Below, one piece after another: positions 34,790 through 61,153 of a DNA stretch of 64,000 nucleotides. The DNA is from a bacterium. GTDB taxonomy: Bacteria > Bacteroidota > Ignavibacteria > UBA10030. The DNA lies in the NCBI GenBank assembly GCA_043803945.1, contig JAZDJN010000042.1, forward strand, positions 32,001 through 96,000, given 5' to 3'. The notes beneath the pieces are model-generated. The model had not been told where the DNA came from. It saw only the letters and a program-made list of their open reading frames with translations, and did no database searches. Position numbers and translations under genes: made by a program. Positions within the stretch are counted from its first letter, which is position 1. Each line of letters starts with the position of its first letter.

Positions 34790-37609
34790 ATGGAAAAACA
34801 ATTGCAGGTGTTGATACTCGAGGATATTCCGATTGACGCGGAACTCACCGAACATGAACTGAAATCGGCAAAAATCGATTGCATCGTACAACGGGTCGCT
34901 ACCAAAAGCAAGTTCATGAAAGAACTGGAGGAGTCTACCCCTGATGTGATCCTGGCGGATTTCACTCTGCCCCAGTTCTCCGGATTGGAAGCATTGCGCA
35001 TTGTCAGGGAAATGAAACTCGACATTCCCTTTATTCTGGTAACCGGAACACAGAGGGAAGAAGTCGCGGTCGAATGTATGAAGGAGGGTGCCGACGATTA
35101 TATCCTTAAAACTAGTCTGAAACGGCTTCCCGCTGCAGTTCTCAATGCCCTTAAGAAAAAAGAGGCCGAACGCGCATCACGCCGCCTAGAAACAGAACTC
35201 CAGAAATCCATCAATTATGCAATCAGCATTTTCGACAGTATTACCGATGCCTTTTTTGCCGTCGATAACGATTGGATACTGATGTATCTCAATCCCCGCT
35301 CTGATACGTTTCTCTCAAAGGTGCACAAACAGCGCGAAGATCTGTGGGGAAAGAACTGGTGGGATGAATTTCCCATTTCGTTCGAATCCGAAGCGGCAAA
35401 ACAATTGTTCCATGCAATGAACGAACGAACCGCTGTCGAATTTGAGGAATATTATCCATCGCTCGAGTCATGGCTCCACATCCGGGCTTATCCGGCTGAT
35501 CCCGGTCTTTCCATCTATGCACAGGATGTTACCGAACGGAAACTTGTGGAAAAAGTTCAACAAGCAGTCTATAAAATCTCCGAGGCAGCCAGCAATGAAA
35601 AGAGTATTGATGCCCTCTTTAAACGTATTCATGAGATCATCTGTGAGTTGATGCAAGCCAAGAATTTTTACATCGCACTCTATGATAAGGAGCGTGACCT
35701 CATTCGGTTTCCGTACTGGGTGGATGAGAAAGATACTGCACCGGGACCGCGGAAACCCGAGCGTGGAATGACAGAATATGTCTTGCGCAATGGTGTTCCC
35801 TTGCTTGCCACCCAGGAGGGTTTGAAGGATCTCGAAATCGAGATGGGAGTCTCTCCACGTGGTACCCCAAGTGTCGATTGGCTTGGCGTACCGTTGAAAA
35901 CGGTTGACGGTGTTATCGGAGTGTTGGCTGTCCAGAGCTATACGGATGGAGTCCGCTATAGCGATGTCGATAAAAATATCCTTGTCTATGTCTCAGAACA
36001 GGTTGCGATGGCAACGGAACGAAAACGGTCGGAAGAGAAAATCATTCAACAGGCCAATCTGCTCGATATCGCGCAGGATGCGATTATGGTTCTCGACATG
36101 GCGCAGAATATTCTCTACTGGAATAAAAGTGCAGAACGGATTTATGGATGGCTGGCTGAAGAAGTGGTAGGAGAAAATGCCAATCGGCTTCTCCAGAAAG
36201 ACCAGGAATCTCTTAATGCAGTCATAGCCCGCGTTCGGGAGAAAAAGAATTGGTTTGGCGAACTAAAACAGGTCACAAAGGACCATCGGGAGTTGATCGT
36301 CGAAAACCGGTGGAGTCTTGTACACGGGCAGGATGGGAAATCAGAATCTATTCTGGTGATTGCTACCGATATTTCCGAGAAAAAGCGGCTCGAACAGCAA
36401 TTCCTCCGCGCACAACGGCTTGAGAGTATTGGCACCTTAGCCAGCGGGCTTGCGCATGATCTGAACAATGTGCTGGCACCGATCATTATGGCGATTCCGT
36501 TTTTAAAGGAGAAGTTGACGGAGAAATCGGACCTCGATATCCTGGCGACACTTCAATCCTCTGCGAAACGCGGAGAAGGTATAGTCAAGCAGGTGCTCTC
36601 CTTTGTCCGTGGTGTGGAAGGTGATCGTGCCATACTTCAGACGAAACACCTGGTGGTGGAACTCGGCAGTTTTCTGAAAGAAACGCTTTCTCCTTCGATC
36701 AGAATTCAAACGAAGCATAACAAGGATCTCTGGCCGGTTCTCGGTGATGCCACCCAGTTGTATCAGGTGCTCATGAATCTCGCTGTAAATGCAAGAGATG
36801 CAATGCCCGAAGGTGGCACGCTGAAAGTTGAAGCCCAGAACCTGCCCCTGGATCAGGATGCAGCCAGCCTGTATATCGATGCCCATCCGGGCCGTTATAT
36901 CCAGTTAACCGTTTCCGATTCCGGTGCCGGTATTCCGGCTGATATTATGAATCGAATCTTCGATCCATTCTTTACTACAAAGGATCCGGGGAAAGGCACC
37001 GGGCTTGGACTGTTCACCGTGCTGACGATCGTAAAAAGCCATGGTGGTTTTGTTGATGTACAGAGCAATCCCGGTTCCGGTACACAATTTAAGATCTATA
37101 TTCCTGCCTGTGAATCGGCAGAATTGAGTCAACTGGAGGAAGGCATTGATATCCCTTCCGGCGAAGGTCAACTCGTCCTGGTTGTCGATGATGAGGTTTC
37201 TATCAGCGACCTCATTGAAATGACATTGAAGAGCCGGAATTACCGGGTTCTGACGGCAAAGGATGGAACCGAGGCTCTGGCGCTCTACATGCAGCACCGG
37301 GGTGAAATTGATGTCGTGCTGATGGATCTATTGATGCCCTACATGGACGGTTCATCAACGGTCCGGGCAATGCAAAAAATTGATCCGTCCGTGAAGATCA
37401 TCGCTATGAGTGGACTTTTGATTGATCGGCAGAGATCGTCTGATGCACTCATCAGTGACTCTATTCCGTTTATGCAAAAGCCGTTCAGCATGGAGAAACT
37501 CCTGAAAACCGTTCATGAGGTAATTCATCTTAACAATGGCTCGAACGGTTCGGACCATCCATTACACCAGGATGATGCCTTGAAATCACTGGTCGGAAAA
37601 TCGAATTGA
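34790..37609 (+). CDS. Cytoplasmic hybrid kinase: REC, PAS, GAF, PAS, HisKA, HATPase, REC
   Basis: N- and C-terminal REC; GAF (WLGVPL..GVLAVQSY); H-box LASGLAHDLNNVL; FFTTK..GTGLGL. Confidence 0.93.
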   Translation: MEKQLQVLILEDIPIDAELTEHELKSAKIDCIVQRVATKSKFMKELEESTPDVILADFTLPQFSGLEALRIVREMKLDIPFILVTGTQREEVAVECMKEGADDYILKTSLKRLPAAVLNALKKKEAERASRRLETELQKSINYAISIFDSITDAFFAVDNDWILMYLNPRSDTFLSKVHKQREDLWGKNWWDEFPISFESEAAKQLFHAMNERTAVEFEEYYPSLESWLHIRAYPADPGLSIYAQDVTERKLVEKVQQAVYKISEAASNEKSIDALFKRIHEIICELMQAKNFYIALYDKERDLIRFPYWVDEKDTAPGPRKPERGMTEYVLRNGVPLLATQEGLKDLEIEMGVSPRGTPSVDWLGVPLKTVDGVIGVLAVQSYTDGVRYSDVDKNILVYVSEQVAMATERKRSEEKIIQQANLLDIAQDAIMVLDMAQNILYWNKSAERIYGWLAEEVVGENANRLLQKDQESLNAVIARVREKKNWFGELKQVTKDHRELIVENRWSLVHGQDGKSESILVIATDISEKKRLEQQFLRAQRLESIGTLASGLAHDLNNVLAPIIMAIPFLKEKLTEKSDLDILATLQSSAKRGEGIVKQVLSFVRGVEGDRAILQTKHLVVELGSFLKETLSPSIRIQTKHNKDLWPVLGDATQLYQVLMNLAVNARDAMPEGGTLKVEAQNLPLDQDAASLYIDAHPGRYIQLTVSDSGAGIPADIMNRIFDPFFTTKDPGKGTGLGLFTVLTIVKSHGGFVDVQSNPGSGTQFKIYIPACESAELSQLEEGIDIPSGEGQLVLVVDDEVSISDLIEMTLKSRNYRVLTAKDGTEALALYMQHRGEIDVVLMDLLMPYMDGSSTVRAMQKIDPSVKIIAMSGLLIDRQRSSDALISDSIPFMQKPFSMEKLLKTVHEVIHLNNGSNGSDHPLHQDDALKSLVGKSN

Positions 37610-37632
37610 ATGTTAGGGTAAGAGGCACTGCC

Positions 37633-39228
37633 ATGGCAACGCAAACAATGTGGGATCGAAAACGTATCGGAGTCGTTCGCGACGTTACCATGTCCAATGT
37701 GACCGTTGTATTGGATTCAACCCTCACGAATCTCACTCTCCAGTTAAATGGAAAAGCATATCCGATTGGTCAAATTGGAACCTACGTACTCGTTCCTGTT
37801 GGCAAACAACTTCTGTTAGGGATGATTGCTGAATTCAGAAACAAAGGTATCCACAAGAATGGTACGATGGCACCCCATTATGAAATGGTGGTGAACCTTA
37901 TCGGAACGGTCAGAGCCGGTATGTTTGAACGGGGTGTCTCATCGTTCCCGACCGCCGATTCACCGGTGTACTTGTTGGAAGATAAGGACCTCAGCGTTGC
38001 ATTTTCTGTATTCCAACGATTTGGTTTTTCCATCGGCAGGCTTTCACTCTTTGAACATGAACGGGCTTTTCTCGATCCGAACCGGTTCTTCGGAAAACAC
38101 CTTGCAGTCGTTGGAGCAAGCGGAGCCGGAAAGTCATGCACTGTCTCGTCAATCCTGCAAAAGGTCATCGGGTATCCCGACACCAAGGTGATTATTCTCG
38201 ACATTCATAACGAGTATCGAACTGCCTTTCCGGAAGAGAGTCAGTATCTCAACCTTTCAGAGCTCGAATTGCCTTTCTGGCTGATGAATTTCCAGGAGAT
38301 GCTCGAGATGTTTATCGATACGGCAGATGAGAATTCCGCAACCCAAATTACGATACTGAAAGACCTTGTGTTCCAGGCAAAGCGTGATCAGAACCCGGAA
38401 TTAAAGAATGTATTGACCATCGATACACCGGTCTATTACAATCTCGCTGAAGTTCGCACCAAGATCGAATATCTTGATACCGAAAAGGGCGGCCCATTCT
38501 ACGGAAAATTCGCCCGCTTCCTGGTTCAACTCGATACAAAGTTGAACGATCCGCGGTACGATTTTATGTTTAAGCCACGCCTCTATATCCACTCGACAAC
38601 GATCGAGGAACTCTTGATCCGGATGTTCAGCCTGGATGGCACATCGAAGATCACCATCATGGATATGAGTGGTGTACCGTTCGATATCGTCAACACGATT
38701 GTCTCCCTGGTCGCACGTCTGGCTTTTGATTTCAATTTCTGGAATATCAACAGGCGCGAATCTCCGATCTTGCTGGTCTTCGAGGAAGCACATAATTATC
38801 TCTCGGCAACCGGAGAAGGAACGCGTGCTGCACGCCGGACGATAGAGCGGATAGCAAAAGAGGGGCGCAAATATGGTGTCAGTTGTATGATTGTCAGCCA
38901 GCGTCCTTCGGAAATCTCCGAGACAATTCTCTCCCAATGCAACAATTTTGTGGTGATGAGGCTGACCAACCCGGTGGATCAGAACTATGTGCGCCGGCTT
39001 GTGGCCGATACGTTTCCGGGATTGGAAAACCTGTTGCCTTCGCTTCGCCAGGGTGAGGCGCTGGTTGTGGGCGATGCGGTCCCGATGCCGCTCCGCGTGC
39101 TGATTGATCCGCCGAAACCGGAACCTGCGAGTGCGGATATAAAATTTTTCGATAAATGGAAACTGAGCTGTACAGCAATCGATGTGAGCGAGGTTGTCCG
39201 GCGATGGTGGCATCAAGATCGTAATTAA
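37633..39228 (+). CDS. HerA/FtsK-family (DUF87, COG0433) ATPase with N-terminal HAS-barrel
   Basis: HAS-like IG.V..GQIGTYV..FERGVSSFPT; Walker A GASGAGKS; Walker B LLVFEEAH; ERIAKEGRKYG; SQRPSE; GEALVVG; GAGG RBS before ATG 37633. Confidence 0.88.
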   Translation: MATQTMWDRKRIGVVRDVTMSNVTVVLDSTLTNLTLQLNGKAYPIGQIGTYVLVPVGKQLLLGMIAEFRNKGIHKNGTMAPHYEMVVNLIGTVRAGMFERGVSSFPTADSPVYLLEDKDLSVAFSVFQRFGFSIGRLSLFEHERAFLDPNRFFGKHLAVVGASGAGKSCTVSSILQKVIGYPDTKVIILDIHNEYRTAFPEESQYLNLSELELPFWLMNFQEMLEMFIDTADENSATQITILKDLVFQAKRDQNPELKNVLTIDTPVYYNLAEVRTKIEYLDTEKGGPFYGKFARFLVQLDTKLNDPRYDFMFKPRLYIHSTTIEELLIRMFSLDGTSKITIMDMSGVPFDIVNTIVSLVARLAFDFNFWNINRRESPILLVFEEAHNYLSATGEGTRAARRTIERIAKEGRKYGVSCMIVSQRPSEISETILSQCNNFVVMRLTNPVDQNYVRRLVADTFPGLENLLPSLRQGEALVVGDAVPMPLRVLIDPPKPEPASADIKFFDKWKLSCTAIDVSEVVRRWWHQDRN

Positions 39229-42280: not shown

Positions 42281-42478
42281 AAAAAACAAGTACCGTATCG
42301 TCTGCAATACTTATGAAAACAATGGCGAGAGACGATTTCTAATTGTGGGAAAATCCTTCATCCTCCAGTCTCCAGCAATTGGTGTCTTTTGCATTGCATA
42401 CGACTTATTACTTTAGTAGCTTCGACCCTAAAATTTCTGATCTGAAACGATCTGTAACGAACGATGGGTATTCAATTG

Positions 42479-44692
42479 ATGAAGCGACTCTTCTTCCTTG
42501 CCATCCTGCCCTGTGTACTCTTTGCCCAGGGGGTGGATATTCGAGGCGTAATCTCCGATTCAACGACAAAAGAAAAAATTCCATTTGCAAATATTTATAT
42601 TCTTGGAACCAGCAAAGGAGCTAATGCAAATGTCGATGGATTCTATCTGATTGCCAAAGTACCGGTTGGGACCTATGAAATTGCGGCAAGCGCAATCGGG
42701 TATGGACGAAAAGTAGTGAAGGTCACTGTCAGCGGCAACGCTCCTATTGTTCTGAATTTTCTCCTTCCATCACGGGCAGTGGAATCGGAAGAAGTCCTTA
42801 TTTCGGGCTCAAGAAAATTCGACCGGGCTGAGATGCGTGTCAGTACCCATGTGATCGAGAAAGAAGATGTGCGGCAGGTGCCTATGCCGGTCCAACCGGA
42901 TATCTTTCGATCATTGAAGATGCTTCCTGGGATCGTCTCAACCAGCGATGTTAACTCCCAATTTCATGTACGCGGCGGAGCGGGGAATCAAAATTTAATC
43001 CTGTTCAATGGGATTAAAATCTATAATCCTTTCCATGCATTTGGTATCTTCAGCCTTTTTGATCCCGACATTATCCGCAGTACCGAGGTATTTACCGGAG
43101 GATTTCCACCCGGGTATGGGAATCGGCTCTCGTCTGTCATTTCCATGTCAACCAAAGATGGTCGCCGTGACGGAATCGGCGGAAAAGCAAGCGTGAACTT
43201 TATTTCGGGAAAACTCATGGTCGAAGGGCCGCTCCCAAAAGATGCATCTTTTGTCGTCAATGGACGCCAGTCTCTTTTCTCAAGCACCTTCAAACGGTTT
43301 CTTGATAAGGATGTACCTCTTTCCTTCTATGATTTTTTCATCAAAGGTTCTATGCCGCTCGGCGGAGAGGCGTACTTCCGTACTCATGCATTGCTGACCT
43401 CCGATGAACTCAATTCACCGAATATTGAAATGCCATCATACCGTTGGCGCAATAAAGCGTTTGGGATATCACTTTCAGGGTTGTTTATGGACCGCTCCTA
43501 TTTTTTTACCGAGGTGCAGTTGGATGAGTACTACGCTGAGAGCAGGCCGAATCACTCTCAGGGAACACCGGCTTCCACAAAGGTGAAGGATGGGTGGGTA
43601 CGAGCTGAAGCAACATACTATACCGATACTCAGGATCAATTATTTGCCGGCTTTGAAACATCCATGATGAACTTCGAGAATGAATTCACCAACAGCTATG
43701 GTGTCAAACGCACCCTCGATGATAACTTGTTTCAAATGAATGCATGGATGCGCTTGCAGAAAACGATGAAAAACAAACAAATTGATTTTGGATTCCATGT
43801 AGATATCCCGAGACTATTCAAATCGATTCTGGGCAGCGGGTTTTCCATCTACGATATCCAACCTCGCATGAATTTGAACTACACAATTGCATCGTGGCTC
43901 CGATGGAAAGCGACTTACGGATTCTTCACACAAAAAATCGTAACCATCGCAAATGAGGATGATGTCATTTCTCTCTTCGAATCTTGGATGCCAATACCGG
44001 GGGATCTTAAGATCGAGCAGTCGCAGCATGTTGTTATTGGCATGGAAGCATCACCAACGCCATGGATCGTCACCACGCTGGAGGGTTACTATAAAGACTT
44101 TGGTTCATTGGTGAGTTACAATAGAGAAAAGGTTGATGCGAATGATCCGGATTATATTAATGCCACAGGGAATGCGTATGGGGTGGAGGCACTGCTCCGG
44201 TATGGCGATCGGATGATCGACCTTTACCTGACCTATTCTTTGGCCTTTACCACCATCGATGCAAATGGATTTGTCTATCCACCGCGCTACGATCGAAGGC
44301 ATAACATCAACGCTATGATCGTTCTTCATCCCATACCGCGGCTCGACGTTTCATTCCGCTGGGAGTTTGGCAGCGGGCTTCCTTTCACACAATCGTTCGG
44401 CTATTATGACCGTTTCTCGTTGCCAAGGATTAACGAAGGAAGTATCCTCAATGAAACAGGCAAGCCATATCTTGTGTTGGGAGAAAAGAATGCCGCCCGG
44501 ATGCCTGCATTCCACAGGCTCGATATCAGCGGAAACTATAGATTCTCCATCAACGCCATCCAGGTGAATCTGGGAGGAAGTATCATTAATGTCTACGACC
44601 GGAAGAATGTTTTTTACTTTGACAGGAAATCAGGAAAACAGATCAATATGCTCTCCTTCTTCCCGTCACTAATGATAGAGATGGAGTTTTAA
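42479..44692 (+). CDS. TonB-dependent outer-membrane receptor (carboxypeptidase-regulatory-like N-domain + plug + barrel)
   Basis: Signal peptide; G.I.DS.TKE.IPFANI; plug LPGI..VRGG..QN; YDRRH; HRLDIS; NVYDRKN; terminal F. Confidence 0.9.
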   Translation: MKRLFFLAILPCVLFAQGVDIRGVISDSTTKEKIPFANIYILGTSKGANANVDGFYLIAKVPVGTYEIAASAIGYGRKVVKVTVSGNAPIVLNFLLPSRAVESEEVLISGSRKFDRAEMRVSTHVIEKEDVRQVPMPVQPDIFRSLKMLPGIVSTSDVNSQFHVRGGAGNQNLILFNGIKIYNPFHAFGIFSLFDPDIIRSTEVFTGGFPPGYGNRLSSVISMSTKDGRRDGIGGKASVNFISGKLMVEGPLPKDASFVVNGRQSLFSSTFKRFLDKDVPLSFYDFFIKGSMPLGGEAYFRTHALLTSDELNSPNIEMPSYRWRNKAFGISLSGLFMDRSYFFTEVQLDEYYAESRPNHSQGTPASTKVKDGWVRAEATYYTDTQDQLFAGFETSMMNFENEFTNSYGVKRTLDDNLFQMNAWMRLQKTMKNKQIDFGFHVDIPRLFKSILGSGFSIYDIQPRMNLNYTIASWLRWKATYGFFTQKIVTIANEDDVISLFESWMPIPGDLKIEQSQHVVIGMEASPTPWIVTTLEGYYKDFGSLVSYNREKVDANDPDYINATGNAYGVEALLRYGDRMIDLYLTYSLAFTTIDANGFVYPPRYDRRHNINAMIVLHPIPRLDVSFRWEFGSGLPFTQSFGYYDRFSLPRINEGSILNETGKPYLVLGEKNAARMPAFHRLDISGNYRFSINAIQVNLGGSIINVYDRKNVFYFDRKSGKQINMLSFFPSLMIEMEF

Positions 44693-44801
44693 TAATGCAT
44701 CGACATAAGCCTATCGCGTCGAAGGAGAGAATAGTTCCATGAGCATGAGTCCAGGAAATTCTATGAAAGAGTGTTTCATTGCAGATGAGGGGAGCAAGTG
44801 A

Positions 44802-45752
44802 ATGAAGAAACCAGTTATTGCCATTATTGCCCTATTATGCTTCTTTAGCGGCTGCAAGGAGACATTTTCACCCAGTGCGCCCTTTGAAAAGCGTTTGGTG
44901 ATCTACAGCCTGATGAATACCAATCAGAGCCGTCAATTCGTCCGAGTAGCCACCTCCTATGATGCTGCGAATTATGATCCCTACATGCAACTGTCCGATC
45001 CGCAGGTTGTCAATGCAGCGGTCGAACTGAGTGATGGAAAGGTAAAAGTATTACTGCATGACACGCTTGTTACGCGGGACGATACTTCGCGTTATCATGA
45101 TAAGATTCATGCTTATGTCGCAGATGACTTTAAACCACTTCAGGGGAAGACGTATTCTCTCACAATTACAGCACCGGAACAGGGGAAGGTTGTAGCTTCA
45201 GTGGCAATTCCTGAAAGGGGATATCTTACGATTACAAGCTATGGACCGTTGATCTCCCTCCTTTCAACGAGTACTGTGATCCAAGGAAGTGCCCGGCTTG
45301 CAGGCGGTGCCTATGGTTATGTGGTAAGGATGTTCATCGACTATGAAGTTAAAGAAAGCAATGGCACATGGCTCCAGTATCGTGCGGAGATGCCAAGTGT
45401 TTATGATTCTACTGATGGAGATAATAAGAAATGGTATCCGCAATACAAGAGAAATCTTAATCGAGTCTATCCATCGTCAACTATACTCTTTGGATTTGCG
45501 AAGGAACCGTACGTTGGACTTGTTACTCGGGTGCTAGACAAGTACAGCAGACAAGACATTCGAAACACGACGGCCTGGTTCTATCTCTATCAGATCGATA
45601 AAAACCTGTATAACTATTACAGTATCGCCAATAACTTTCAAGATGAATATTCGATCAGGGTCGATATGCCTGATTATACAAGCATTAAGGGTGCGTACGG
45701 AGTCTTTGGGGGTGTATCCGTCGATTCCCTTTCAATCTTGCTGCGATGGTAG
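44802..45752 (+). CDS. DUF4249-like lipoprotein, partner of the TonB receptor
   Basis: Lipobox FSGC; GKTYSL.I; C-terminal TSIKGAYGVFG. Confidence 0.75.
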   Translation: MKKPVIAIIALLCFFSGCKETFSPSAPFEKRLVIYSLMNTNQSRQFVRVATSYDAANYDPYMQLSDPQVVNAAVELSDGKVKVLLHDTLVTRDDTSRYHDKIHAYVADDFKPLQGKTYSLTITAPEQGKVVASVAIPERGYLTITSYGPLISLLSTSTVIQGSARLAGGAYGYVVRMFIDYEVKESNGTWLQYRAEMPSVYDSTDGDNKKWYPQYKRNLNRVYPSSTILFGFAKEPYVGLVTRVLDKYSRQDIRNTTAWFYLYQIDKNLYNYYSIANNFQDEYSIRVDMPDYTSIKGAYGVFGGVSVDSLSILLRW

Positions 45753-47089: not shown

Positions 47090-48111
47090 TGCTTCAGGCC
47101 TTTGTGTTGTGAGTGCATCTGCTTAAGTTTTTGCATCATGGATGTAAACATTGGAAAATCCAGACTCTGAGGACCGTCAGACTTTGCCCTCTCAGGTTCT
47201 TTGTGTACTTCCACCATCACGCCATGGGCTCCGACAGCTAATCCAGCGCAGGCGAGTGAAGGAACAAGGCTTCGATTTCCCGTCGCATGGCTCGGATCGA
47301 TAATGATCGGAAGGTGCGAAAGTTGCCGAATTAACGGAACGGCTGAGATATCGAGTGTATACCGGGTTGCTGTCTCAAACGTCCTGATTCCGCGTTCACA
47401 GAGAATGACATTATAATTTCCTCCCTTAAGTATATACTCAGCTGCTAACAAAAATTCTTCAATGGTCGCCATTGGTCCTCGTTTTAAGAGTACGGGTTTG
47501 TCGATTGTACTGACTTCATTAAGGAGGGCGAAGTTCTGCATGTTTCTGGCGCCGATCTGAACGATATCGGCATAGCGTGCCACGACCTCCACATCCTGTG
47601 GAGAGAGGACCTCAGTCACAACGGGCAGCCCGGTCTGTCGGCCTGCTTCGGAAAGGTACTCAAGCGCTTCAACTCCCAACCCCTGGAAGCTATAGGGTGA
47701 CGTCCGTGGTTTGAATGCGCCGCCACGGAGGATGTGAGCTCCCTGGTCCTTTACGAAGTGAGCTGTTTCAAGAATCTGGTCGCGTGATTCTACCGAGCAA
47801 GGGCCGGCAATAACCGTGTACGTATCCGCACAGATGGTATGTGTCCCGAGGGCAATGGTGGTATCGTCATATTTAATATCTCTTGAAGCAAGCTTGAAGG
47901 GCTTCGTGATGGTGATGACATTTTCTACGCCGGCAAAGACTGAGAGATGTGAACGGAGAGCAGATCGTTGATCGCCGATTTCTCCAATCAGCCCAATGAT
48001 GGCATTGCTTTCACCCTGTGAGAGGTGAGGGCGAAAACCGTTTTCTTCGATAAAGGCAATGACATTTTGAATTTCGTGAGGTTGCGAACCTCGTTTCATA
48101 ATGACAACCAT
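47086..48111 (-). CDS. aroF: DAHP synthase, class I-beta with N-terminal ferredoxin/ACT-like regulatory domain
   Basis: True start MVVIMK at 48111 (AAGGAG RBS); IAGPCSVE; [16 protein letters not shown]; [10 protein letters not shown]; [10 protein letters not shown]; DPSHA. Confidence 0.95.
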
Positions 48112-48115
48112 AGCA

Positions 48116-48493
48116 TTAACTCCTTCTGACTGATTGGTGTTGAACCAGATCAGGCCGTAATTGTTTGGCCTTTCCGATGTATTGATGGCGTATTTGATCC
48201 GGCCTCTTGTCGATGTGTGCAAAAACCAACATCCGCAGAAGTTTCCGCGGCGCATCGACCACATCCATCTCCTGTGAACAAAGAAATGGAATAAACCGAT
48301 ACTCAGCTTTTCTGCTGATGCCAGCCGGAAATGCGGCATTGAGGTCGGTCGTTGCAGTAATAAAAATTGCACAGAGGTCATCCGGTTTAAGCCGGTTCGC
48401 CCTCAAGAGTGCCTGAAGTAATCGATCGGAAGAATGCAGTATCGACTCCTTCGAATTTTCCTTCACGTAAATAGCTCCGCGTATTCCTCTCAT
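48116..48493 (-). CDS. aroH: Chorismate mutase, AroH type
   Basis: MRGIRGA; T.DLNAAFPA; EMDV; H.Y...A..LRPDL. Confidence 0.93.
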   Translation of the reverse strand: MRGIRGAIYVKENSKESILHSSDRLLQALLRANRLKPDDLCAIFITATTDLNAAFPAGISRKAEYRFIPFLCSQEMDVVDAPRKLLRMLVFAHIDKRPDQIRHQYIGKAKQLRPDLVQHQSVRRS

Positions 48494-48511
48494 AGTGACT
48501 CCTTTCTGGTT

Positions 48512-48552
48512 AAAAACAAAGAAGCCCTTCCTGGTGTTTCCAAGAAGGGCTT
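48512..48552 (-). terminator. Intrinsic terminator (attenuator) in the aroH leader
   Basis: Minus strand AAGCCCTTCTTGG-AAACA-CCAGGAAGGGCTT-CTTTGTTTTT, 19 nt before the aroH start. Confidence 0.85.
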
Positions 48553-48575
48553 TTGATTAGAGATGAATTGTAGTG

Positions 48576-48668
48576 TTATGCCATTCTCTTGCCACCAGGG
48601 TGTAATGGTGAGGTCGCGTAATAATAATACGCGTATCGGACTACGTTATACTTGGTTGCCTTTGTCAT
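48576..48668 (-). CDS. Tyr-rich leader peptide MTKATKYNVVRYAYYYYATSPLHPGGKRMA
   Basis: 30 codons with 6 Tyr, four consecutive; lies between a promoter and the terminator of a Tyr-biosynthesis operon. Confidence 0.8.
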   Translation of the reverse strand: MTKATKYNVVRYAYYYYATSPLHPGGKRMA

Positions 48669-48708
48669 TGTCGTTTCGAATGAGTAATCTGTTTCACATC
48701 TCATCTAC

Positions 48709-48737
48709 ACAGTAAAATATTTTCAACCAAAATTCAA
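48709..48737 (-). promoter_or_regulatory. Putative sigma70 promoter of the aro-tyr operon
   Basis: TTGAAT-N17-TACTGT, 40 nt upstream of the leader ATG. Confidence 0.5.
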
Positions 48738-49293
48738 GTAAAAAAACCAAAAGGGTAATTATTCTGATTAGTTTGATGGCCACTACAGCAGCCAACCTTG
48801 CCTTTGATAATAATCCATAATACTTTCTCCTAGAACAACACTCTTCGACGAATGGCGGACATTCCTTTGGGATTTGTTAAGGGTTTGTTTCAGTGTGGAA
48901 GTGGCGCCAAATTCTATTACTTCTTTAGTATCCTGCGCAGCGGGGATATTCATTAGCGCCGATGGTAAAGTGTCCATGACTATAGAAAAAACGATGAGCC
49001 AGCTTCTCGGCCACCCACCAGGCAACCGATCACCGGCTCATCAAGAAGGAGGAGAGGACACTGGCGTGCCCCTCACTAGAAAAAACGGGTGTTTGCGGCA
49101 AAAGTTGTCCTATGCTTAAATATTTCTTCACTCAGGCGTTCCATAACTGAGACGGTTATTATGCATGAATTGGCTGGATTTCTTGTTGCGGCAATTCCCG
49201 ATTGGCAAACTTGCCTTTCATCTGAATCTCTCTTAGTTTCTGCCGGGTATTGGAGCCTAATGATCGTGGCGAATTTGCCAATTGAGGTCAACG

Positions 49294-49539
49294 ATGAGTA
49301 TTGAAGAGCATGGTATGCTAGAGACAATTCTGAAAGAAAAGGGATTTATGAAAGATTTATTCGATGCGATCCCCTTTCCAATATTCATCGTCGATTCGGA
49401 TGTGAATATTCTCTATTGGAATTTTGCCGCCAACGGGATGCTGGGTGAAGAGCAGGTTCTCAAAGTCGATGTTGGATTTACCCATGGGATTTGCCCGGAT
49501 TGTGTTTCCAAGTTGTCGCCAGCGAGTGCGAAAAATTAA
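49294..49539 (+). pseudogene. Collapsed PAS-domain protein (PAS start fused to FTHGICPDC tail)
   Basis: LFDAIPFPIFIVDSDVNILYWNFAA (first half of a PAS) is joined directly to FTHGICPDC; the usual partner CxxC (PICxxCKK) and the rest of the PAS are absent. Confidence 0.6.
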
Positions 49540-49723
49540 TCGGTAGATATTGCTGACACAGTTCTCTGACTCTCAGTCTCTCATAATATTCCATGTCATA
49601 GAGTGACATACTCACAACTTCTCTTAAGACATCAATGAAATCCTTTTAAGCACTGGTTCTGATTCCCTGCGGTATTCGGAATAAGAGAGAACCGGATTAA
49701 TCCACAACGCACTCAGGGATTCC

Positions 49724-50431
49724 ATGACAAAGGCGATTGCTATTGTAACAGGAGGCTCCTCCGGGCTTGGATTGGAAATCGCACGACTACTTCTCCAAAA
49801 AGATCTTCATGTCTGCATTGTTGGCCGTTCATCGAAGAAATTGGCGACAGCACGACAGACACTTGCGCATCATGCCGGAAGAGGTACGTTGATCTCATTT
49901 CAGGGGAACGCTGCCCATGAAGAAGATGTGGCCTCTATGTTTTCCATGCTTACTGAGCAAGGATATCAGGTTACCCATGTCGTTAATTGTGCCGGACAGG
50001 GATTTTTCGGTGAACCAGACCAAACAGACCAATACATCATCAATGAAGTCTTTGACTCAAATCTGATTAGCCTGATGCTTGTCTCGACTTATGCCCTTCG
50101 TGTAATGAAAGAGCAGGGTGGTGTTATTCTCAATGTGATGTCAACATCGGCTCTTGTTGGAAGAGGGAAAGAGACGGTATATTGTGCGGCGAAGTGGGGT
50201 GCTCGAGGGTACACCGAATCCTTGAAACTTGCTCTCCAGGGATCGAACATTAGTGTCATTTCGGTCTTTCCCGGCGGAATGAAAACGCCATTTTGGGAGA
50301 ATCATCCTGAGCGGGCAAATGACGTTGCCGCCTTTATGGATCCCGCAGAGGTTGCAGAGCGGATCATTGATGCCGCGTTCAATATCAAGACTGGGATAAT
50401 CAGCGATCTGGTGATACAACGAAAACGGTAA
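49724..50431 (+). CDS. Short-chain dehydrogenase/reductase
   Basis: VTGGSSGLG; NCAG; S..YCAAK; PGGMKT. Confidence 0.92.
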   Translation: MTKAIAIVTGGSSGLGLEIARLLLQKDLHVCIVGRSSKKLATARQTLAHHAGRGTLISFQGNAAHEEDVASMFSMLTEQGYQVTHVVNCAGQGFFGEPDQTDQYIINEVFDSNLISLMLVSTYALRVMKEQGGVILNVMSTSALVGRGKETVYCAAKWGARGYTESLKLALQGSNISVISVFPGGMKTPFWENHPERANDVAAFMDPAEVAERIIDAAFNIKTGIISDLVIQRKR

Positions 50432-55597: not shown

Positions 55598-57097
55598 TTA
55601 TAGGATTTGAAACTTCTTTACAGACTTACCGGGTTCGATGAGATGCACAGCACATGCAATACACGGATCGAACGAGCGGACAATGCGTGCAATTGCGAAC
55701 GGATTCTCTGTATCTTCAATTGTTGCTCCAATTATTGCCAGTTCCATAGGACCCGGTTGACCCTTATCGTCTTGCGGTGAAGCGTTCCATGTTGTTGGCA
55801 CGACAGCCTGATAGCGTGCGATCTTTCCGTTCTTGATGCTGATCCAGTGTCCGAGAGCTCCACGAGCTGCACACCAAAGACCCATGCCCTCTGCTGTTTC
55901 AGGAATCTTGTGATCGGTGCATACGGGTTCTTCGAGTTTTACCGACATGATCATTGTTTCCAATTCATCAGCGACGATTTTACACTCCAACGCACGGCAA
56001 AGATGTCTCCCCAGAACGGAGTATAAAGCGTCGTGGCCTACCTGCAGTTGCGAGAGGGCTTCATCGACGAGCTTGACGATTTTAGGATTCGATTTGCTGC
56101 GATATGCCATTGCGATGCGGGCCAGGGGTCCAACCTCATAAGCATTGTTTTCGTAGCGCGGAGCCTTTAACCAACTGTAACCGTTTGATTTCTTCGGATT
56201 TGGAAGACTCTCACCTTTGCTCGGATGCAGATGGCTTGGCGAGTCATACCATGACGATTTCACATCTTCAGTAATTTTTTTTGGATCGACCGATTCGATG
56301 TTTCCATCGACCAATCTTCCCATTGGGAAAAGACGCTTCCTCTTAGTGACATTGGGCTCATCGTCGAGGTCGAACAATCCGAATGAGAGGAGTCGCTTAC
56401 ATCCAGTACCTATCTGGAAATAATCCCTGTAGATTTGGCTAACCGTCAAAACATCCGGGAGGTAAACCTTGTCGATAAATTCACGCAATTCTTGCAAACG
56501 CCACAATGAAGTAGTGATATTATCGATGCGTGGACGGATGGAAACGCCGCCGGGAACAATTGAAGCCATATGAGGCATCTTTCCCGACCAGATCGCACAC
56601 AGTTCATGCGCTTTAAGCCGCATCTGGTAACCCTGGATGTAATGGTTTACAAGTGTGTCATGCACGGTCGATGGAACGCGATAGTCTGCCTCGTAGCGCG
56701 GGATAAACGGCGGAACATCGGGGCCGCGGAAGAAATCGAGCGATGCGAGGTGATAGAAATGCAGGATGTGTGACTGGATATAGTTAGCGCCTTGCATAAT
56801 GTTTCTTATGATTCGAGCATTCGGCGGAGGCATGATGCCGAAAGCATTCTCCAACGCCTGCGAGGATGCGATGGCGTGCGGCGTAGGGCATACGCCGCAA
56901 AAACGCTGCGTGATCTGTATTGCATCCAAGGGATTTCGATCGATGAGGATTTGTTCAAAACCGCGATACAATGTGCCGCCGACCTTTGCTTCGACGATTT
57001 TTCGATTGTCTACGATCGCTTCAACTTTGAGATGTCCCTCGATGCGCGTCATCGGATCGATAGTAATTTTTGTTCTGACGGTATCCATAGTTCTCAT
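55598..57097 (-). CDS. [NiFe] hydrogenase large subunit (group 1, 1a-like); start may be 57088
   Basis: DPMTRIEGH; L1 QRFCGVCPTPH; SHILHFYHL; L2 RSFDPCIACAVH plus a cleavable C-terminal extension. Confidence 0.93.
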   Translation of the reverse strand: MRTMDTVRTKITIDPMTRIEGHLKVEAIVDNRKIVEAKVGGTLYRGFEQILIDRNPLDAIQITQRFCGVCPTPHAIASSQALENAFGIMPPPNARIIRNIMQGANYIQSHILHFYHLASLDFFRGPDVPPFIPRYEADYRVPSTVHDTLVNHYIQGYQMRLKAHELCAIWSGKMPHMASIVPGGVSIRPRIDNITTSLWRLQELREFIDKVYLPDVLTVSQIYRDYFQIGTGCKRLLSFGLFDLDDEPNVTKRKRLFPMGRLVDGNIESVDPKKITEDVKSSWYDSPSHLHPSKGESLPNPKKSNGYSWLKAPRYENNAYEVGPLARIAMAYRSKSNPKIVKLVDEALSQLQVGHDALYSVLGRHLCRALECKIVADELETMIMSVKLEEPVCTDHKIPETAEGMGLWCAARGALGHWISIKNGKIARYQAVVPTTWNASPQDDKGQPGPMELAIIGATIEDTENPFAIARIVRSFDPCIACAVHLIEPGKSVKKFQIL

Positions 57098-58047
57098 CTC
57101 CTTTGATAAATGGGTGAATGTGCATCGGGGAATCCCTTTTCAGTGCATCCAATGCATGGTCCACCGGCTCCAATGCACCAGTTGACACCGCCGTTCCACA
57201 ACCGTATAGGGCAGTCGGCGTATGTGAATGGACCTTTGCAACCGAGTTCGAGCAAACATCCTTCATCGCCAAACTTCGTTGCGAAGATACCATCGTCCAG
57301 GTAATCGCGATTAATGCAGCGATTGTGGACTGAGCGGCCGAAAAAGAGCTTTAACCGGCCGTGCTCGTCAATCTCTTTCGGCTTCGGCATACCGTAGAGT
57401 AAAATCTTGGAGACCGTTCCGATAAACCAATCCGGATGACACGGACACCCTGGAATATTGATGACCGGAGTGGAAATATTCAACATCTTATAAGCATCAC
57501 TTGTGCCAATGCAACCGGATGGATTGGGTTCTCCCATTGGTAATCCGCCATAGGCAGCGCAAGTCCCCACAGTGAGGGTCGCCATCGCATCCCTGCCTAA
57601 CAAATCAATCCAATTCAGCATCGTGATCGGTTTATTCTCGTTCTCGCCAACCCAACCATACATTCCCTCCTGCTTTGTGGGGATTGCACCTTCTACGACG
57701 AGCACATACTTTCCTTTGTACTTCGTCGAGACTTCGCGGGCAGTATTGATGGAGAGTGATCCGGTAGCAGCCATCAATGTCCCGTGATACATGAGTTTTA
57801 ATTGATGACCCGGAAGTACTTGTTCCAGGATCACATTTTTAATGCTTGGGTGGATAGTATTGATGACCGAAACTGAGCACCCGCTGCATGTTGAGGCTTG
57901 CAGCCAAATGATGGGATATTCTTTCACCGCCTCTTGCAACGCCTCGGCTAATTTTGGAAAGAATCCATCCACCATACTCATAGCCGCTGGTGCAGCGATT
58001 GCCCAACGGACAAAATCTCTGCGGGTAAATTTGTGGTTGACGGCCAT
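57094..58047 (-). CDS. [NiFe] hydrogenase small subunit with Tat signal
   Basis: TRRDFV; WLQASTCSGC; GTCAAYGG; PGCPCHPDW; H..C..GCLLELGCKGP..C..WCIGAGGPCIGC; no C-terminal TM. Confidence 0.93.
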   Translation of the reverse strand: MAVNHKFTRRDFVRWAIAAPAAMSMVDGFFPKLAEALQEAVKEYPIIWLQASTCSGCSVSVINTIHPSIKNVILEQVLPGHQLKLMYHGTLMAATGSLSINTAREVSTKYKGKYVLVVEGAIPTKQEGMYGWVGENENKPITMLNWIDLLGRDAMATLTVGTCAAYGGLPMGEPNPSGCIGTSDAYKMLNISTPVINIPGCPCHPDWFIGTVSKILLYGMPKPKEIDEHGRLKLFFGRSVHNRCINRDYLDDGIFATKFGDEGCLLELGCKGPFTYADCPIRLWNGGVNWCIGAGGPCIGCTEKGFPDAHSPIYQRR

Positions 58048-58235
58048 ATGATATTCCTTTCTTGTTGAAGTGACCGATAAACGATCTTAACGAGATAGAC
58101 ACCATAGGGTCTGCTGTGATCCTACAGTGAAGATGATTCAATTATAATGAATGGGTGGTTTAGAGAGTCTGACACTGTTTTACTCGTCTCGTTGTAGGTT
58201 TTTTGTGTGGGATCGTTAGGTTTAGATTTCGGATA

Positions 58236-58667
58236 TTATGGTGTAGTCGATCTCTTTTCTGGAGCCGGATGATTGAGGTTAAAAAGTTGCATAGCGAGAT
58301 TGGTCGGATTAATACCGAGTCGACTACAAGCAACTTCGATGGATAAGGAGAGGATATGAACAGCGGTTTCTCTTCCCGTTTCGGTAAGAACAACTTGTTC
58401 TCTTCGTCGATCATTTGGATGGAGTGATCGACACACAAATCCCTTCTCTTCCAACAGCCTTAATGCTCTAGATGTCCGTGTCGGCGGTCCTTCCAGCTCG
58501 GTATTTAACTCTTTTACACATGTAGGATGTTTGATGTGGAGAATACTGAGGCAATGAATTTCATCGATTGTCAAACCTGTTGAGGTAGCAAGATGCTTGT
58601 CGATATCCCGGCATCGTGAGGTAAGCCGGAGAAGATCTGCACCGATGATGGGATTGAAGAGATCCAT
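58236..58667 (-). CDS. MarR-family transcriptional regulator
   Basis: GLT..E..L; SRAL..LEEKGFV.R....DRR...V.LTE.G winged helix. Confidence 0.85.
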   Translation of the reverse strand: MDLFNPIIGADLLRLTSRCRDIDKHLATSTGLTIDEIHCLSILHIKHPTCVKELNTELEGPPTRTSRALRLLEEKGFVCRSLHPNDRRREQVVLTETGRETAVHILSLSIEVACSRLGINPTNLAMQLFNLNHPAPEKRSTTP

Positions 58668-58677
58668 AGCATTTCAA

Positions 58678-58721
58678 ATAATAGTTTCATTCTACAATAA
58701 TTATACCAATGAAACTATTAT
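58678..58721. promoter_or_regulatory. Perfect 14-bp inverted repeat overlapping an extended -10; probable MarR autoregulatory operator
   Basis: ATAATAGTTTCATT-N16-AATGAAACTATTAT; minus-strand TGGTATAAT at 58700-58708. Confidence 0.7.
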
Positions 58722-58886
58722 CAAAATTGATATAAATTTGGCCAATATCACTTTTGGCAATGATGCTTATTTCAACTGATGTTGAGTATATCAACGGATA
58801 GGTTGGAGATTACATAGAGTCCATCAGGTGAGCTCGCTCGTGAGAGGGAGAGCAAGGTGGTAACGGGGAATACTACAATATGGAGT

Positions 58887-60299
58887 TTATGCTGTGCTTC
58901 TTCCTGAGGTAAGATATTCGTGGATGGATTTTGCAGCCTTTCGTCCAGCACCCATTGCGAGAATGACAGTCGCTGCGCCGGTAACGACATCTCCCCCTGC
59001 CCAGATACGATCACGTGATGTCTGACCCGTGGTTTCGCTCGCTTCGACGTTGCCCTTCTTTCCGATTTTCAACCCGGGTGTTGTTGCGCCGATTAGCGGA
59101 TTGGGACTATTGCCGATTGCACATACAACAGCATCGACATCGAAAACAGTTTCGGACCCTTCGATCGGGATAGGCTTTCGCCGTCCGGAGGCATCGGGTT
59201 CACCCAGTGCCATTCTCTGACAGATGACCCGTTTGACCCAGCCGTTCTCATCACCTTCGTAACGCAAAGGGAGTGTAAGAAATTCGAAAATGACACCTTC
59301 TTCTTCGGCATTTTCGACTTCCTCAAGGCGTGCGGGAAGCTCCTCACGTGAACGTCGGTAAATGATCCGCGTCTCAGCGCCGAGGCGGAGTGCGCTGCGT
59401 GCACAATCCATTGCAACATTGCCGCCTCCGACCACAGCAACTTTCTTCTGTGCTTTGATCGGTGTGTGATATTGTGGAAAAAGATAGCCCTTCATAAGGT
59501 TTAAACGGGTGAGATACTCGTTTGCGGAATACACTCCATTCAGGTTCTCACCCGGTATTTCCATGAACCATGGCAGTCCGGCGCCCGAACCCACAAAGAC
59601 TGCGTCGTACTCCTCCAGTATACTATCGATGGTTCGAGTTTTGCCGACGACAAAGTCGGTAATTAATTCGACACCGAGCATATTCAGATATTCAACTTCG
59701 CGTTGTACGATAGCTTTTGGCAATCGGAACTCAGGTATGCCATACGTAAGTACTCCACCCATACGATGGAGAGCTTCGAAGATTGTTACGCTGTGACCCT
59801 GCTTGATGAGATCGCCGGCAACAGTTAATCCGGCTGGACCACCGCCGACGACGGCCACTTTTTTTCCGGTTGGAAGAGGATTCTCCGGCAATGTAAGTTT
59901 TCCCTGTGCCGCTTCCCAGTCTGCTAAAAATCTTTCGAGTCTTCCGATTGCAAGCTCACTCCCTTTTTTCTTGAGAGCGCATGCGCTTTCACACTGTTCT
60001 TCCTGCGGGCACACGCGGCCACAGATTGCCGGAAGGCAATTCTTCTGTTTTAGAATCCGGACGCCCTCGGAGAATTTTCCATCTGCAATACACTGAATAA
60101 ATGCCGGAATATCGATTTCCACCGGACATTCACCAATGCAACGCGCATCCTTGCATTGAATGCAGCGTTTCGCTTCCTCGATGGCAGTTGTCTCAGAATA
60201 CCCGAGTGCAACTTCATAAAAATTGTGGCATCGAACCTCAGGAGGCTGCTTTGGCATTAATCGGCGATACAGGTCGAGCTTCTTCTTTTCGGCTGCCAT
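58887..60299 (-). CDS. nfnB: NfnB/SudA (GltD-like NADPH-binding large subunit of NADH-dependent ferredoxin:NADP+ oxidoreductase)
   Basis: EAKRCIQC..C...CP; CGRVCPQE.QCE..C; VGGGPAGL; YGIPEFRLPK; GGGNVAMDCAR; GGDVVTGAATVILAMGAG. Confidence 0.9.
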   Translation of the reverse strand: MAAEKKKLDLYRRLMPKQPPEVRCHNFYEVALGYSETTAIEEAKRCIQCKDARCIGECPVEIDIPAFIQCIADGKFSEGVRILKQKNCLPAICGRVCPQEEQCESACALKKKGSELAIGRLERFLADWEAAQGKLTLPENPLPTGKKVAVVGGGPAGLTVAGDLIKQGHSVTIFEALHRMGGVLTYGIPEFRLPKAIVQREVEYLNMLGVELITDFVVGKTRTIDSILEEYDAVFVGSGAGLPWFMEIPGENLNGVYSANEYLTRLNLMKGYLFPQYHTPIKAQKKVAVVGGGNVAMDCARSALRLGAETRIIYRRSREELPARLEEVENAEEEGVIFEFLTLPLRYEGDENGWVKRVICQRMALGEPDASGRRKPIPIEGSETVFDVDAVVCAIGNSPNPLIGATTPGLKIGKKGNVEASETTGQTSRDRIWAGGDVVTGAATVILAMGAGRKAAKSIHEYLTSGRSTA

Positions 60300-61153
60300 C
60301 AGGAAGGCTCCTCAACTTTTTTTGAATGTTCCTCGCAGCGGCTGGTGCGGAGTGGAACAATCTCCTCTTCCATATACGTCTTTCGCCGCTGAAGCATTTC
60401 GGGCCAGTTGACCTGGTGGCCGTCGAAGTCAGGTCCGTGCACACACGCAAAACGTGTTGTTCCCCCAACTGACACACGGCACACACCACACATTCCGGTC
60501 CCATCGATCATAATCGGATTCAAGCTCACGACGGTCGATATGCCGAGCGCCAGAGTCGCGTCGGCGCCGCGTTTCATGACAAATGTACATCCATTAATCA
60601 GTACGCGATGCACTGGCTCGTTGAGTCCTTTGATGATTTCGGGTAATCTGCCGACGTGTCCTTTGAGCCCCTTGGTACCGTCGCGCGTTATGTGAAATAC
60701 TTTGCTGGCAAGCAAGCGAAAGCGTTCTTCCCAATAGAAGAGATACGAACTGCGCGCTTCAAGAACGACAATGACTTGATTTCCCTGTTCCTTTAATGCA
60801 CGCACGATCGGATAAATGCTTCCGATGCCATAACAGCCACCCATGCAGAGAACAGTGCCGTAGTGCTCGATTTCCGCGGCGTTCCCCAATGGTCCTACAA
60901 CCGTCGGAATAGTTCCGCCTTCCTCCAGCTTTGAAAGGCGGTTCGTTGTACTGCCGATATTCATGAAGACGATTGTCAGCGTGCCATGGTCGCGATCCCA
61001 ATCGGAGATGGAGAGTGGAATGCGTTCCCCCTCCTCTTCGGCGCGAAGAATGACAAATTGTCCCGGCTTAACGTCCTTGACCACGGCGGGCGCTTCAATC
61101 GTAAGCACGTGCATATTTGGTACAATCATTCTGCTGGCGATGACTCTATACAT
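60299..61153 (-). CDS. nfnA: NfnA/SudB (small FAD/[2Fe-2S] subunit), variant
   Basis: PGQFVILR....ERIPL; GPLG; SLNPIMIDGTGMCGVCR..ACVHGPDFDGH. Confidence 0.88.
   Translation of the reverse strand: MYRVIASRMIVPNMHVLTIEAPAVVKDVKPGQFVILRAEEEGERIPLSISDWDRDHGTLTIVFMNIGSTTNRLSKLEEGGTIPTVVGPLGNAAEIEHYGTVLCMGGCYGIGSIYPIVRALKEQGNQVIVVLEARSSYLFYWEERFRLLASKVFHITRDGTKGLKGHVGRLPEIIKGLNEPVHRVLINGCTFVMKRGADATLALGISTVVSLNPIMIDGTGMCGVCRVSVGGTTRFACVHGPDFDGHQVNWPEMLQRRKTYMEEEIVPLRTSRCEEHSKKVEEPS

Follow-up and report, generated by a model that had tools for sequence, protein, structure and literature searches.

The question raised by this locus is whether an operon for tyrosine (Tyr) synthesis, which consists of aroH, a gene for 3-deoxy-D-arabino-heptulosonate 7-phosphate (DAHP) synthase and tyrA, is controlled by the short leader that precedes it, and by which mechanism. 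The locus lies in a 64-kb stretch of contig JAZDJN010000042.1 from an uncultured bacterium of the Ignavibacteria lineage UBA10030. Here, this whole stretch is called the window, all coordinates are positions within it, and both leader and operon lie on its minus strand. The original prediction for this region was a ribosome-mediated attenuator that reads Tyr codons, and the present analysis supports it: no known RNA family or T-box matches the leader, its run of Tyr codons is unique in the window, its antiterminator is non-random, its fold switches with the position of the ribosome, and the arrangement recurs before aroH elsewhere. It is therefore likely that the candidate leader is a classical ribosome-mediated attenuator, responding to charged tRNA-Tyr and regulating aroH, DAHP synthase and tyrA. 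Judged from the sequence and the folds, the attenuator is probably real and functional, and the enzymes of Tyr synthesis would most likely be made only when charged tRNA-Tyr is short. Of seven listed features that define classical attenuators, four are found here, namely an open reading frame (ORF) with codons for the end product, a terminator, an antiterminator and a fitting ribosome geometry.

The leader contains the following elements:

48668-48576, minus strand: 30-codon leader ORF, from ATG at 48668-48666 to TAA at 48578-48576; translation MTKATKYNVVRYAYYYYATSPLHPGGKRMA

48650-48648 and 48635-48633, minus strand: two further Tyr codons outside the run, read from the sequence

48629-48618, minus strand: Tyr run TAT TAT TAT TAC (codons 14-17), read from the sequence; proposed stalling site

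48611-48606, minus strand: segment 1, UCACCA (codons 20-21), which pairs with UGGUGG at 48597-48592 as a weak anti-antiterminator (-6.2 kcal/mol)

48599-48580, minus strand: segment 2, the antiterminator 5' strand CCUGGUGGCAAGAGAAUGGC (codons 24-30 of the ORF), from folds and duplex energy

48552-48530, minus strand: segment 3, made up of the terminator 5' arm at 48552-48540, its loop at 48539-48535 and five bases from the start of the 3' arm

48552-48512, minus strand: intrinsic terminator with a 13-bp stem (-21.7 kcal/mol), followed by CUUUGUUUUU

The translation of the leader ORF confirms that it is rich in Tyr, as had been claimed. Its aromatic codons are six for Tyr and none for phenylalanine (Phe) or tryptophan (Trp). 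The run of four Tyr codons, TAYTAYTAYTAY, has a single match on both strands of the 64 kb, where 0.04 matches are expected and 4 of 100 shuffles contain at least one. Furthermore, a short ORF with at least four Tyr within seven codons is present in 2 of 566 overlapping 450-nt intervals, both of which contain the leader ORF itself. A second in-frame ATG is located further upstream at 48704-48702 and would extend the ORF to 42 codons. The peptide is of low complexity, and as a query it found no homologue in the protein collection. The repeated UACGCG on either side of the Tyr run forms a 6-bp hairpin, CGCGUA:UACGCG, with the run in its loop (48618-48638, minus strand).

Downstream of the ORF, the expected 13-bp terminator with its U tract could be verified. 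Its stem (48552-48522) consists of 13 pairs, 7 of them G-C, and encloses 5 loop nucleotides; the tail is CTTTGTTTTT, with the U tract at 48520-48512. This terminator starts 23 nt past the leader stop codon and lies 28 nt before the aroH ATG, leaving no room for a separate promoter. When 8 or more perfect pairs, 4 or more G-C pairs and 6 or more T in 9 positions are required, it is the sole match on both strands of the 64 kb and the only strong canonical terminator of the window. No gene end within the window carries a terminator by the same thresholds, and canonical terminators may be rare at the gene ends of this lineage.

In the folds, segment 2 and the terminator 3' arm compete for segment 3, and their pairings with it are mutually exclusive. 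The motif CCUGGUG-G-CAAGAG (48599-48586) is complementary to UUCUUG-GAAA-CACCAGG (48546-48530), which accounts for -13.4 kcal/mol alone, and a GGC:GCC extension (48582-48580 with 48550-48548) brings the antiterminator to -18.5 to -21.0 kcal/mol. The complementarity of leader and terminator, and with it a mutually exclusive antiterminator, had been proposed beforehand and holds up well against random sequences. The duplex between 48606-48565, which is codon 22 to just past the stop, and 48552-48530 has -23.3 kcal/mol in comparison to -10.6 +/- 2.6 kcal/mol for dinucleotide shuffles, a value reached by 0 of 1000 shuffles and by 0 of 1320 genomic 42-mers. As a whole, the 201-nt leader folds with -50.1 kcal/mol (z = -3.99), and none of 200 shuffles folds as well. 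On the contrary, a CCAUU/AAUGG stem that had been suggested as an anti-antiterminator was seen in no fold; the UCACCA:UGGUGG hairpin (-6.2 kcal/mol), which overlaps segment 2, appears instead.

Geometrically, 18 nt separate the end of the Tyr run from the antiterminator strand, which in turn is followed by the stop codon at a distance of 1 nt. Since equilibrium folding with ribosome masks did not discriminate between the states, growing-chain folds were used, in which successive 3' ends are folded with the ribosome footprint masked; a ribosome at the stop codon was modelled as covering the RNA to ~48564. Placing the ribosomal A site on codon 14 or codon 17 of the Tyr run yields a best fold with 8-10 of the 16 antiterminator pairs and none of the 13 terminator pairs. 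This antiterminator persists from the 3' end 48540 to 48526 (codon 14) or 48524 (codon 17), that is, it stays the best fold until the last 2-4 bases of the terminator emerge. A ribosome at the stop codon lets the terminator nucleate from 48530, and no antiterminator pair is formed. In line with this, the terminator 5' arm is sequestered with a probability of 0.60-0.65 in masked folds with a stalled ribosome versus 0.12 with the ribosome at the stop codon. Folding of both conformers, which had been recommended as a check, thus returned, for the growing chain, the antiterminator in the stalled state and the terminator with the ribosome at the stop codon, and the geometry of stalling and stopping described in the original prediction is reproduced.

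Mechanistically, the following sequence of events can be proposed. Transcription would start near 48700-48725, and a ribosome would translate the 30-codon leader. If Tyr-tRNA is scarce, the ribosome would stall on the Tyr codons 14-17, leaving 48599-48580 free to pair with the emerging 48550-48530, which includes the terminator 5' arm, the loop and the first bases of the 3' arm. This antiterminator of about -20 kcal/mol would pre-empt the terminator, so that the RNA polymerase continues into aroH; to prevent this, the terminator would need to displace a preformed helix of about -20 kcal/mol with the polymerase already on the U tract. If Tyr-tRNA is plentiful, the ribosome would reach the TAA at 48578-48576 and cover the antiterminator strand. 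Once this strand is covered, the 13-bp terminator would form and transcription would end at the U tract 48520-48512.

The genes following the terminator are those that had been named for it, aroH, DAHP synthase and tyrA, as confirmed by domain matches:

48505-48499, minus strand: Shine-Dalgarno motif AAAGGAG, read from the sequence

48493-48116, minus strand: aroH, type I chorismate mutase of 125 amino acids, ATG at 48493 (CM_1, 5.5e-36; TIGR01796)

48111-47086, minus strand: DAHP synthase of type I-beta with an N-terminal ferredoxin-like domain, 341 amino acids (domain matches), behind the Shine-Dalgarno motif GAAGGAG

47089-46175, minus strand: tyrA, prephenate dehydrogenase (domain matches), last gene of the operon

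Here, the true start of DAHP synthase is the ATG at 48111, and the genes beyond tyrA converge on the operon. The operon comprises the Tyr branch together with the entry enzyme, and the aromatic codons of the leader are exclusively Tyr codons; therefore this pairing fits Tyr-specific control, although as a single case.

The distances in this region also bear on the idea that the ORF is translated but acts through translation, either by re-initiation or coupling, or encodes a functional small peptide, without any control of termination. For leader genes, an increase of downstream translation by re-initiation has been proposed (PMC4833913). However, the stop codon of the leader ORF lies 83 nt before the aroH ATG with the terminator in between, and aroH has its own strong Shine-Dalgarno motif, which is sequestered in no fold. 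The peptide is also of low complexity and has no homologue in the protein collection, and such a role of the ORF is very improbable. Attenuation of transcription thus stays the preferred reading.

If the leader is a functional attenuator, is a similar design present before aroH in other bacteria? This search, which had been suggested together with the original prediction, was performed on the best 80 of 432 confirmed aroH loci obtained by an AroH search of genome contigs (identity <=47%). The counts given below refer to the 73 of these 80 loci with at least 300 nt upstream, of which 450 nt were scanned for an upstream ORF (uORF). A uORF with at least four Tyr in seven codons was found in 9 of 73 sense upstream regions, in 1 of 73 antisense regions, in 2 of 1968 other 450-nt intervals of the same loci and in 1 of 730 shuffles. 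With a criterion of at least five aromatic codons including at least three Tyr, the numbers are 13 of 73 (sense), 1 of 73 (antisense), 7 of 1968 (other intervals) and 2 of 730 (shuffles).

Moreover, a hairpin with a T run of -15 kcal/mol or lower within 220 nt of aroH accompanies 13 of the 16 loci with an aromatic uORF and 6 of the 57 others (Fisher p = 1.3e-7), and four of these six (L059, L062, L068 and L074) carry weaker aromatic uORFs in the same layout. In the aromatic-uORF loci the terminators stand just before the Shine-Dalgarno site of aroH, and the distance from the stop codon to the terminator arm is 22-36 nt in most of them, compared to 23 nt in the window. A cross-locus folding script showed for eight leaders, the one in the window and those of seven loci, that the terminator 5' arm is sequestered with the ribosome on the aromatic run and not with the ribosome at the stop. 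With this script the values for run and stop are 0.52/0.10 for the window, 0.84/0.24 for L031 and 0.64/0.03 for L052. The automatic choice of the terminator is crude for the Atribacterota loci, L022, L029 and L023, and the switch was not seen for L022, L029 and L023.

The aromatic leaders found before aroH are distributed as follows:

100-300 nt upstream of aroH: Chloroflexota/Anaerolineae leaders in L031, L038, L045, L050, L052, L059, L062, L065, L068, L069, L074, L075 and L079

about 200-430 nt upstream of aroH: Atribacterota-like leaders in L021, L043, L060, L071 and L076 (for example L076:3575-3785)

upstream of aroH: further aromatic leaders in L022 (Bacteroidota) and L029 (Deferribacteres)

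The Chloroflexota/Anaerolineae leaders show a near-consensus promoter of the TTGACA type, a short ORF with a Tyr/Phe run and a strong terminator, followed by aroH together with DAHP synthase, tyrA, pheA, aroA or aroE. In the five Atribacterota-like loci, a conserved Tyr/Phe-rich uORF, which in L060 and L076 starts at a GTG behind AAGGAG, is followed by two conserved hairpins, and this leader shows a few compensatory changes. The 3' end of this uORF is complementary to the 5' arm of the first hairpin, and the 3' arm of that hairpin resembles the complement of the terminator 5' arm. By its sequence, this suggests a five-segment relay, unlike the three-segment design in the window.

These leaders from metagenome-assembled genomes (MAGs) resemble the one in the window in their order of a putative promoter, a short ORF containing an aromatic run, a strong terminator and a Shine-Dalgarno motif before aroH, which is then followed by DAHP synthase and/or tyrA. 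They differ in that Tyr is mixed with Phe, and in L022 also with Trp, and in that the operons also carry aroA, aroE and/or pheA. Within this set, the leader in the window is the only Tyr-only member and its operon the only one limited to aroH, DAHP synthase and tyrA. A general rule that the Tyr/Phe mix of the leader tracks the presence of pheA or tyrA was considered and rejected, because L038 and L065 carry pheA behind a Tyr-dominant run; it fits the window only (n = 1). In a search of 19 of the loci, no match to Rfam was found besides tRNA.

Aromatic uORFs with terminators thus recur before aroH in distant phyla, as analogous and not orthologous leaders, and this combination is not catalogued as far as these searches reach. 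Tentatively, and with somewhat less confidence than an even chance would give, the leader in the window may be a working Tyr-specific attenuator within a wide, uncatalogued set of Tyr/Phe leaders that arose repeatedly before aroH-led operons, in Chloroflexota, Atribacterota, Bacteroidota, Deferribacteres and the lineage of the window, and with at least two RNA architectures.

As a separate observation, a Dehalococcoidales MAG (L023:3830-3905) carries a Trp-rich short ORF, with two WW pairs and then FF, before aroH and DAHP synthase. No convincing terminator was found upstream of this aroH (best -2.3 kcal/mol), and the ORF could be due to chance or to another mode of control.

Several points weigh against attenuation by a translating ribosome. 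At equilibrium, the full terminator wins in every ribosome state with a mean pair probability of 0.97. Such dominance of the terminator is usual for attenuators, and the choice between antiterminator and terminator must therefore be kinetic, if it is made as proposed. A growing chain free of ribosomes also passes through the antiterminator and, since in addition the hairpin of segments 1 and 2 is weak (-6.2 kcal/mol), termination by default in the absence of translation is not predicted. With scoring restricted to the 5' arm the effect is not significant, 22 of 100 mononucleotide shuffles being equal to the real sequence in sequestering this arm; the significance of the complementarity is due to its extension into the terminator loop and 3' arm. 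Furthermore, a motif resembling a Shine-Dalgarno sequence was found neither before the ATG at 48668 nor before the one at 48704. This does not disqualify the ORF, because by a lenient criterion only 16 of the 32 genes in the window have such a motif.

A further point of this kind is the promoter, for which two candidates can be given:

48737-48709, minus strand: putative weak promoter TTGAAT-N17-TACTGT, read from the sequence, 7 of 12 consensus positions

48742-48714, minus strand: alternative promoter TTTACT-N17-TATTTT, read from the sequence

The first of these had been put forward as the promoter of the leader. Its sequence is indeed present, but with 7 of 12 positions it is weak, was not reported by the sigma-70 scan and cannot be told from chance. 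By eye, no convincing match to the Bacteroidota-type -7/-33 promoter was seen at the leader. The promoter scan did report a sigma-70-like site within the leader ORF, GTGGCA-N17-TACAAT (9 of 12; 48595-48567, minus strand), which is probably a chance match. It would provide no bypass, because a transcript from there still runs into the terminator; lacking the antiterminator strand, such a transcript should terminate.

Also the comparison with relatives has its weak sides. The nearest AroH is 55% identical (best of 28 homologues in the protein collection, on short metagenome contigs) and the best AroH on genome contigs 47%, and the leaders available for comparison are thus analogous and not orthologous. 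At the nucleotide level, the similarity of the leader to the 80 aroH loci consists of chance matches of 12-14 nt only. In L001, the closest locus with the order aroH-DAHP synthase-tyrA, aroH directly follows a trpA-like gene and has no leader; owing to this position L001 was rejected as not comparable. By the criterion of at least five aromatic codons, 57 of the 73 aroH loci are without an aromatic uORF. For DAHP synthase, the nearest relatives are 70% identical and probably lie on the same metagenome contigs as the nearest AroH, and the named matches come from Fischerbacteria, Bacteroidetes, Acidobacteria and Anaerolineae with 57-62% identity.

These distances, together with the weak promoter, the peptide without a homologue and the victory of the terminator at equilibrium, would also be in line with a chance ORF beside a leaky terminator that acts constitutively or as an insulator, with expression governed by other means, such as a transcription factor and the allostery of DAHP synthase. 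Nevertheless, such a joint occurrence is improbable: the only four-Tyr run and the only strong terminator of the 64 kb stand together before a Tyr-branch operon, with a complementarity that 0 of 1000 shuffles reach, and the same combination recurs before aroH in other phyla. We therefore regard a coincidence as quite unlikely, and attenuation through the Tyr codons stays the better account of the locus.

Does the leader belong to a family that is already described? Rfam was searched with all 4227 models, for the whole window at the gathering threshold and for 48300-49000 with relaxed settings (E up to 10). The former search gave no match, the latter only matches at chance level, namely sR084 (E 0.11, driven by the terminator hairpin), MIR781 and Bacteroidales-1. 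No amino-acid leader family of Rfam, such as those for Trp, His, Thr, Leu and Phe, was among the matches. A T-box riboswitch, which binds the tRNA directly, requires stem I with its specifier loop, and the bulge of its antiterminator has to carry the conserved T-box sequence. A Tyr T-box of Firmicutes would have the same output as the leader in the window, read-through of a terminator when tRNA-Tyr is uncharged; the leader differs from it by the absence of a T-box match in these searches and by being too short. Both a T-box and a known amino-acid leader family were therefore rejected as candidates.

This result also concerns the possibility that the leader attenuates while its ORF is untranslated, with a protein, a tRNA or a metabolite selecting between antiterminator and terminator in the manner of TRAP, PyrR, T-boxes or riboswitches. 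The ATG without a Shine-Dalgarno motif would fit to this, the antiterminator and terminator are present irrespective of any translation, and in Firmicutes aromatic genes are under Tyr T-boxes, as stated in the accessible part of PMC1262725. However, besides the missing Rfam matches, only ~55 nt extend from the stop of the ORF to the end of the terminator, which leaves no space for an aptamer. Further, it would stay unexplained why a unique run of four Tyr codons stands in a frame whose last seven codons form the antiterminator strand, and why aromatic-codon ORFs are enriched before aroH elsewhere on the sense strand only. A selector other than the ribosome is therefore unlikely, if slightly more conceivable than a chance ORF.

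The leader peptides of known attenuators sense Trp, His, Phe, Leu, Thr and Ile/Val. With the proteobacterial representatives trpL, pheL, hisL, thrL, leuL and ilvL, the leader in the window shares a short ORF with a codon run for the end product, a rho-independent terminator ahead of the first structural gene and a mutually exclusive antiterminator, the 5' strand of which would lie under a ribosome at the end of the ORF. In contrast, Tyr is the amino acid predicted to be sensed, the operon is aroH-DAHP synthase-tyrA, and there is no similarity in sequence or to the Rfam models. Structurally, unlike the proteobacterial attenuators, its antiterminator extends into the terminator loop and 5 nt further into the 3' arm, the hairpin of segments 1 and 2 is weak, and a Shine-Dalgarno site is missing. 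In E. coli, aroF-tyrA is regulated by TyrR; since the lineage of the window is not E. coli-like, this comparison serves as a contrast only.

Attenuation at E. coli aroF was hypothesized in 1980 by Camakaris, according to the consulted part of PMC8632094, and an "attenuator sensing tyr-tRNA" listed for Shewanella aroF rests on the same paper, as far as the available text of PMC2659441 goes. The closest described system is aroR of C. glutamicum, a Phe-Tyr-Phe leader before the aroF operon, which responds to Phe limitation and not to the availability of Tyr (PMC11802643, citing Neshat 2014). As is proposed for the window, a leader peptide with aromatic codons acts there through ribosome stalling on an operon in which DAHP synthase is the first or a later gene. 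Compared by description only, the leader in the window differs by six Tyr and no Phe codons, by preceding a type I chorismate mutase and by an operon that ends with tyrA. In the accessible part of PMC8632094, the uORFC-13-1 motif upstream of Acholeplasma aroF is described, which reads Phe codons via a U run and has a terminator, and which is known from Acholeplasma and environmental sequences only. It is likewise a candidate uORF followed by a terminator before a DAHP synthase gene, and sensing of an aromatic amino acid via the speed of translation was proposed; the leader in the window has Tyr codons instead, aroH as the first gene, and belongs to another lineage. For the tyrosine operons of Actinobacteria, the consulted part of PMC1262725 reports no conserved RNA element upstream, and the consulted portions of PMC2965389 and PMC4833913 contain nothing on Tyr.

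The novelty that had been claimed for the locus is thus to be narrowed. Aromatic leaders before DAHP synthase have precedents in the available text of PMC11802643 and PMC8632094, whereas no description of a Tyr-run leader peptide or of a leader on an aroH-led operon was found in openly searchable full text, a scope outside of which subscription papers fall. What is new is the predicted specificity for the amino acid Tyr and the type of operon, while the mechanism itself is classical. In leader-peptide attenuation, judging from the accessible parts of PMC2659441, PMC8632094 and PMC11802643, Tyr has been a gap, apart from the hypothesis of 1980 and the leader of C. glutamicum. If the proposal is true, a pure Tyr-run leader before a Tyr-branch operon fills this gap. 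Furthermore, aromatic leaders are common before aroH in poorly studied phyla and absent from Rfam, which is of relevance for the annotation of MAGs, a task in which short ORFs and 5' terminators are regularly overlooked, and for the question of how readily this regulatory design arises convergently.

In the remaining window, the ~1 kb between the leader and a divergent short-chain dehydrogenase gene (48740-49723) contains no confident gene, and Rfam has no match in 48700-49760. An ORF of 85 amino acids on the plus strand (49282-49539) shows a partial match to a PAS domain (PAS_8, 2.9e-6) and may be what remains of one of the numerous PAS sensor genes. The region 4621-40562 is very dense in signalling genes, with several large multi-PAS histidine kinases, one of them of 1637 amino acids, hybrid kinases, three tandem methyl-accepting chemotaxis proteins, CheR, CheA and CheB. 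One hybrid kinase gene overlaps at its end with the gene for a HerA-like ATPase (37606-39228), for which NCBIfam gives anti-phage-associated HerA as the top match, with 417 bits and under the cutoff of 850 bits. On the minus strand, the region 55598-63653 contains the large and small subunits of a NiFeSe-type hydrogenase, together with genes resembling NADPH-dependent glutamate synthase, FAD/NAD-binding proteins and NuoG/formate dehydrogenase, which points to an anaerobe. Finally, a SusC-like TonB receptor and a DUF4249 gene are located at 42464-45752.

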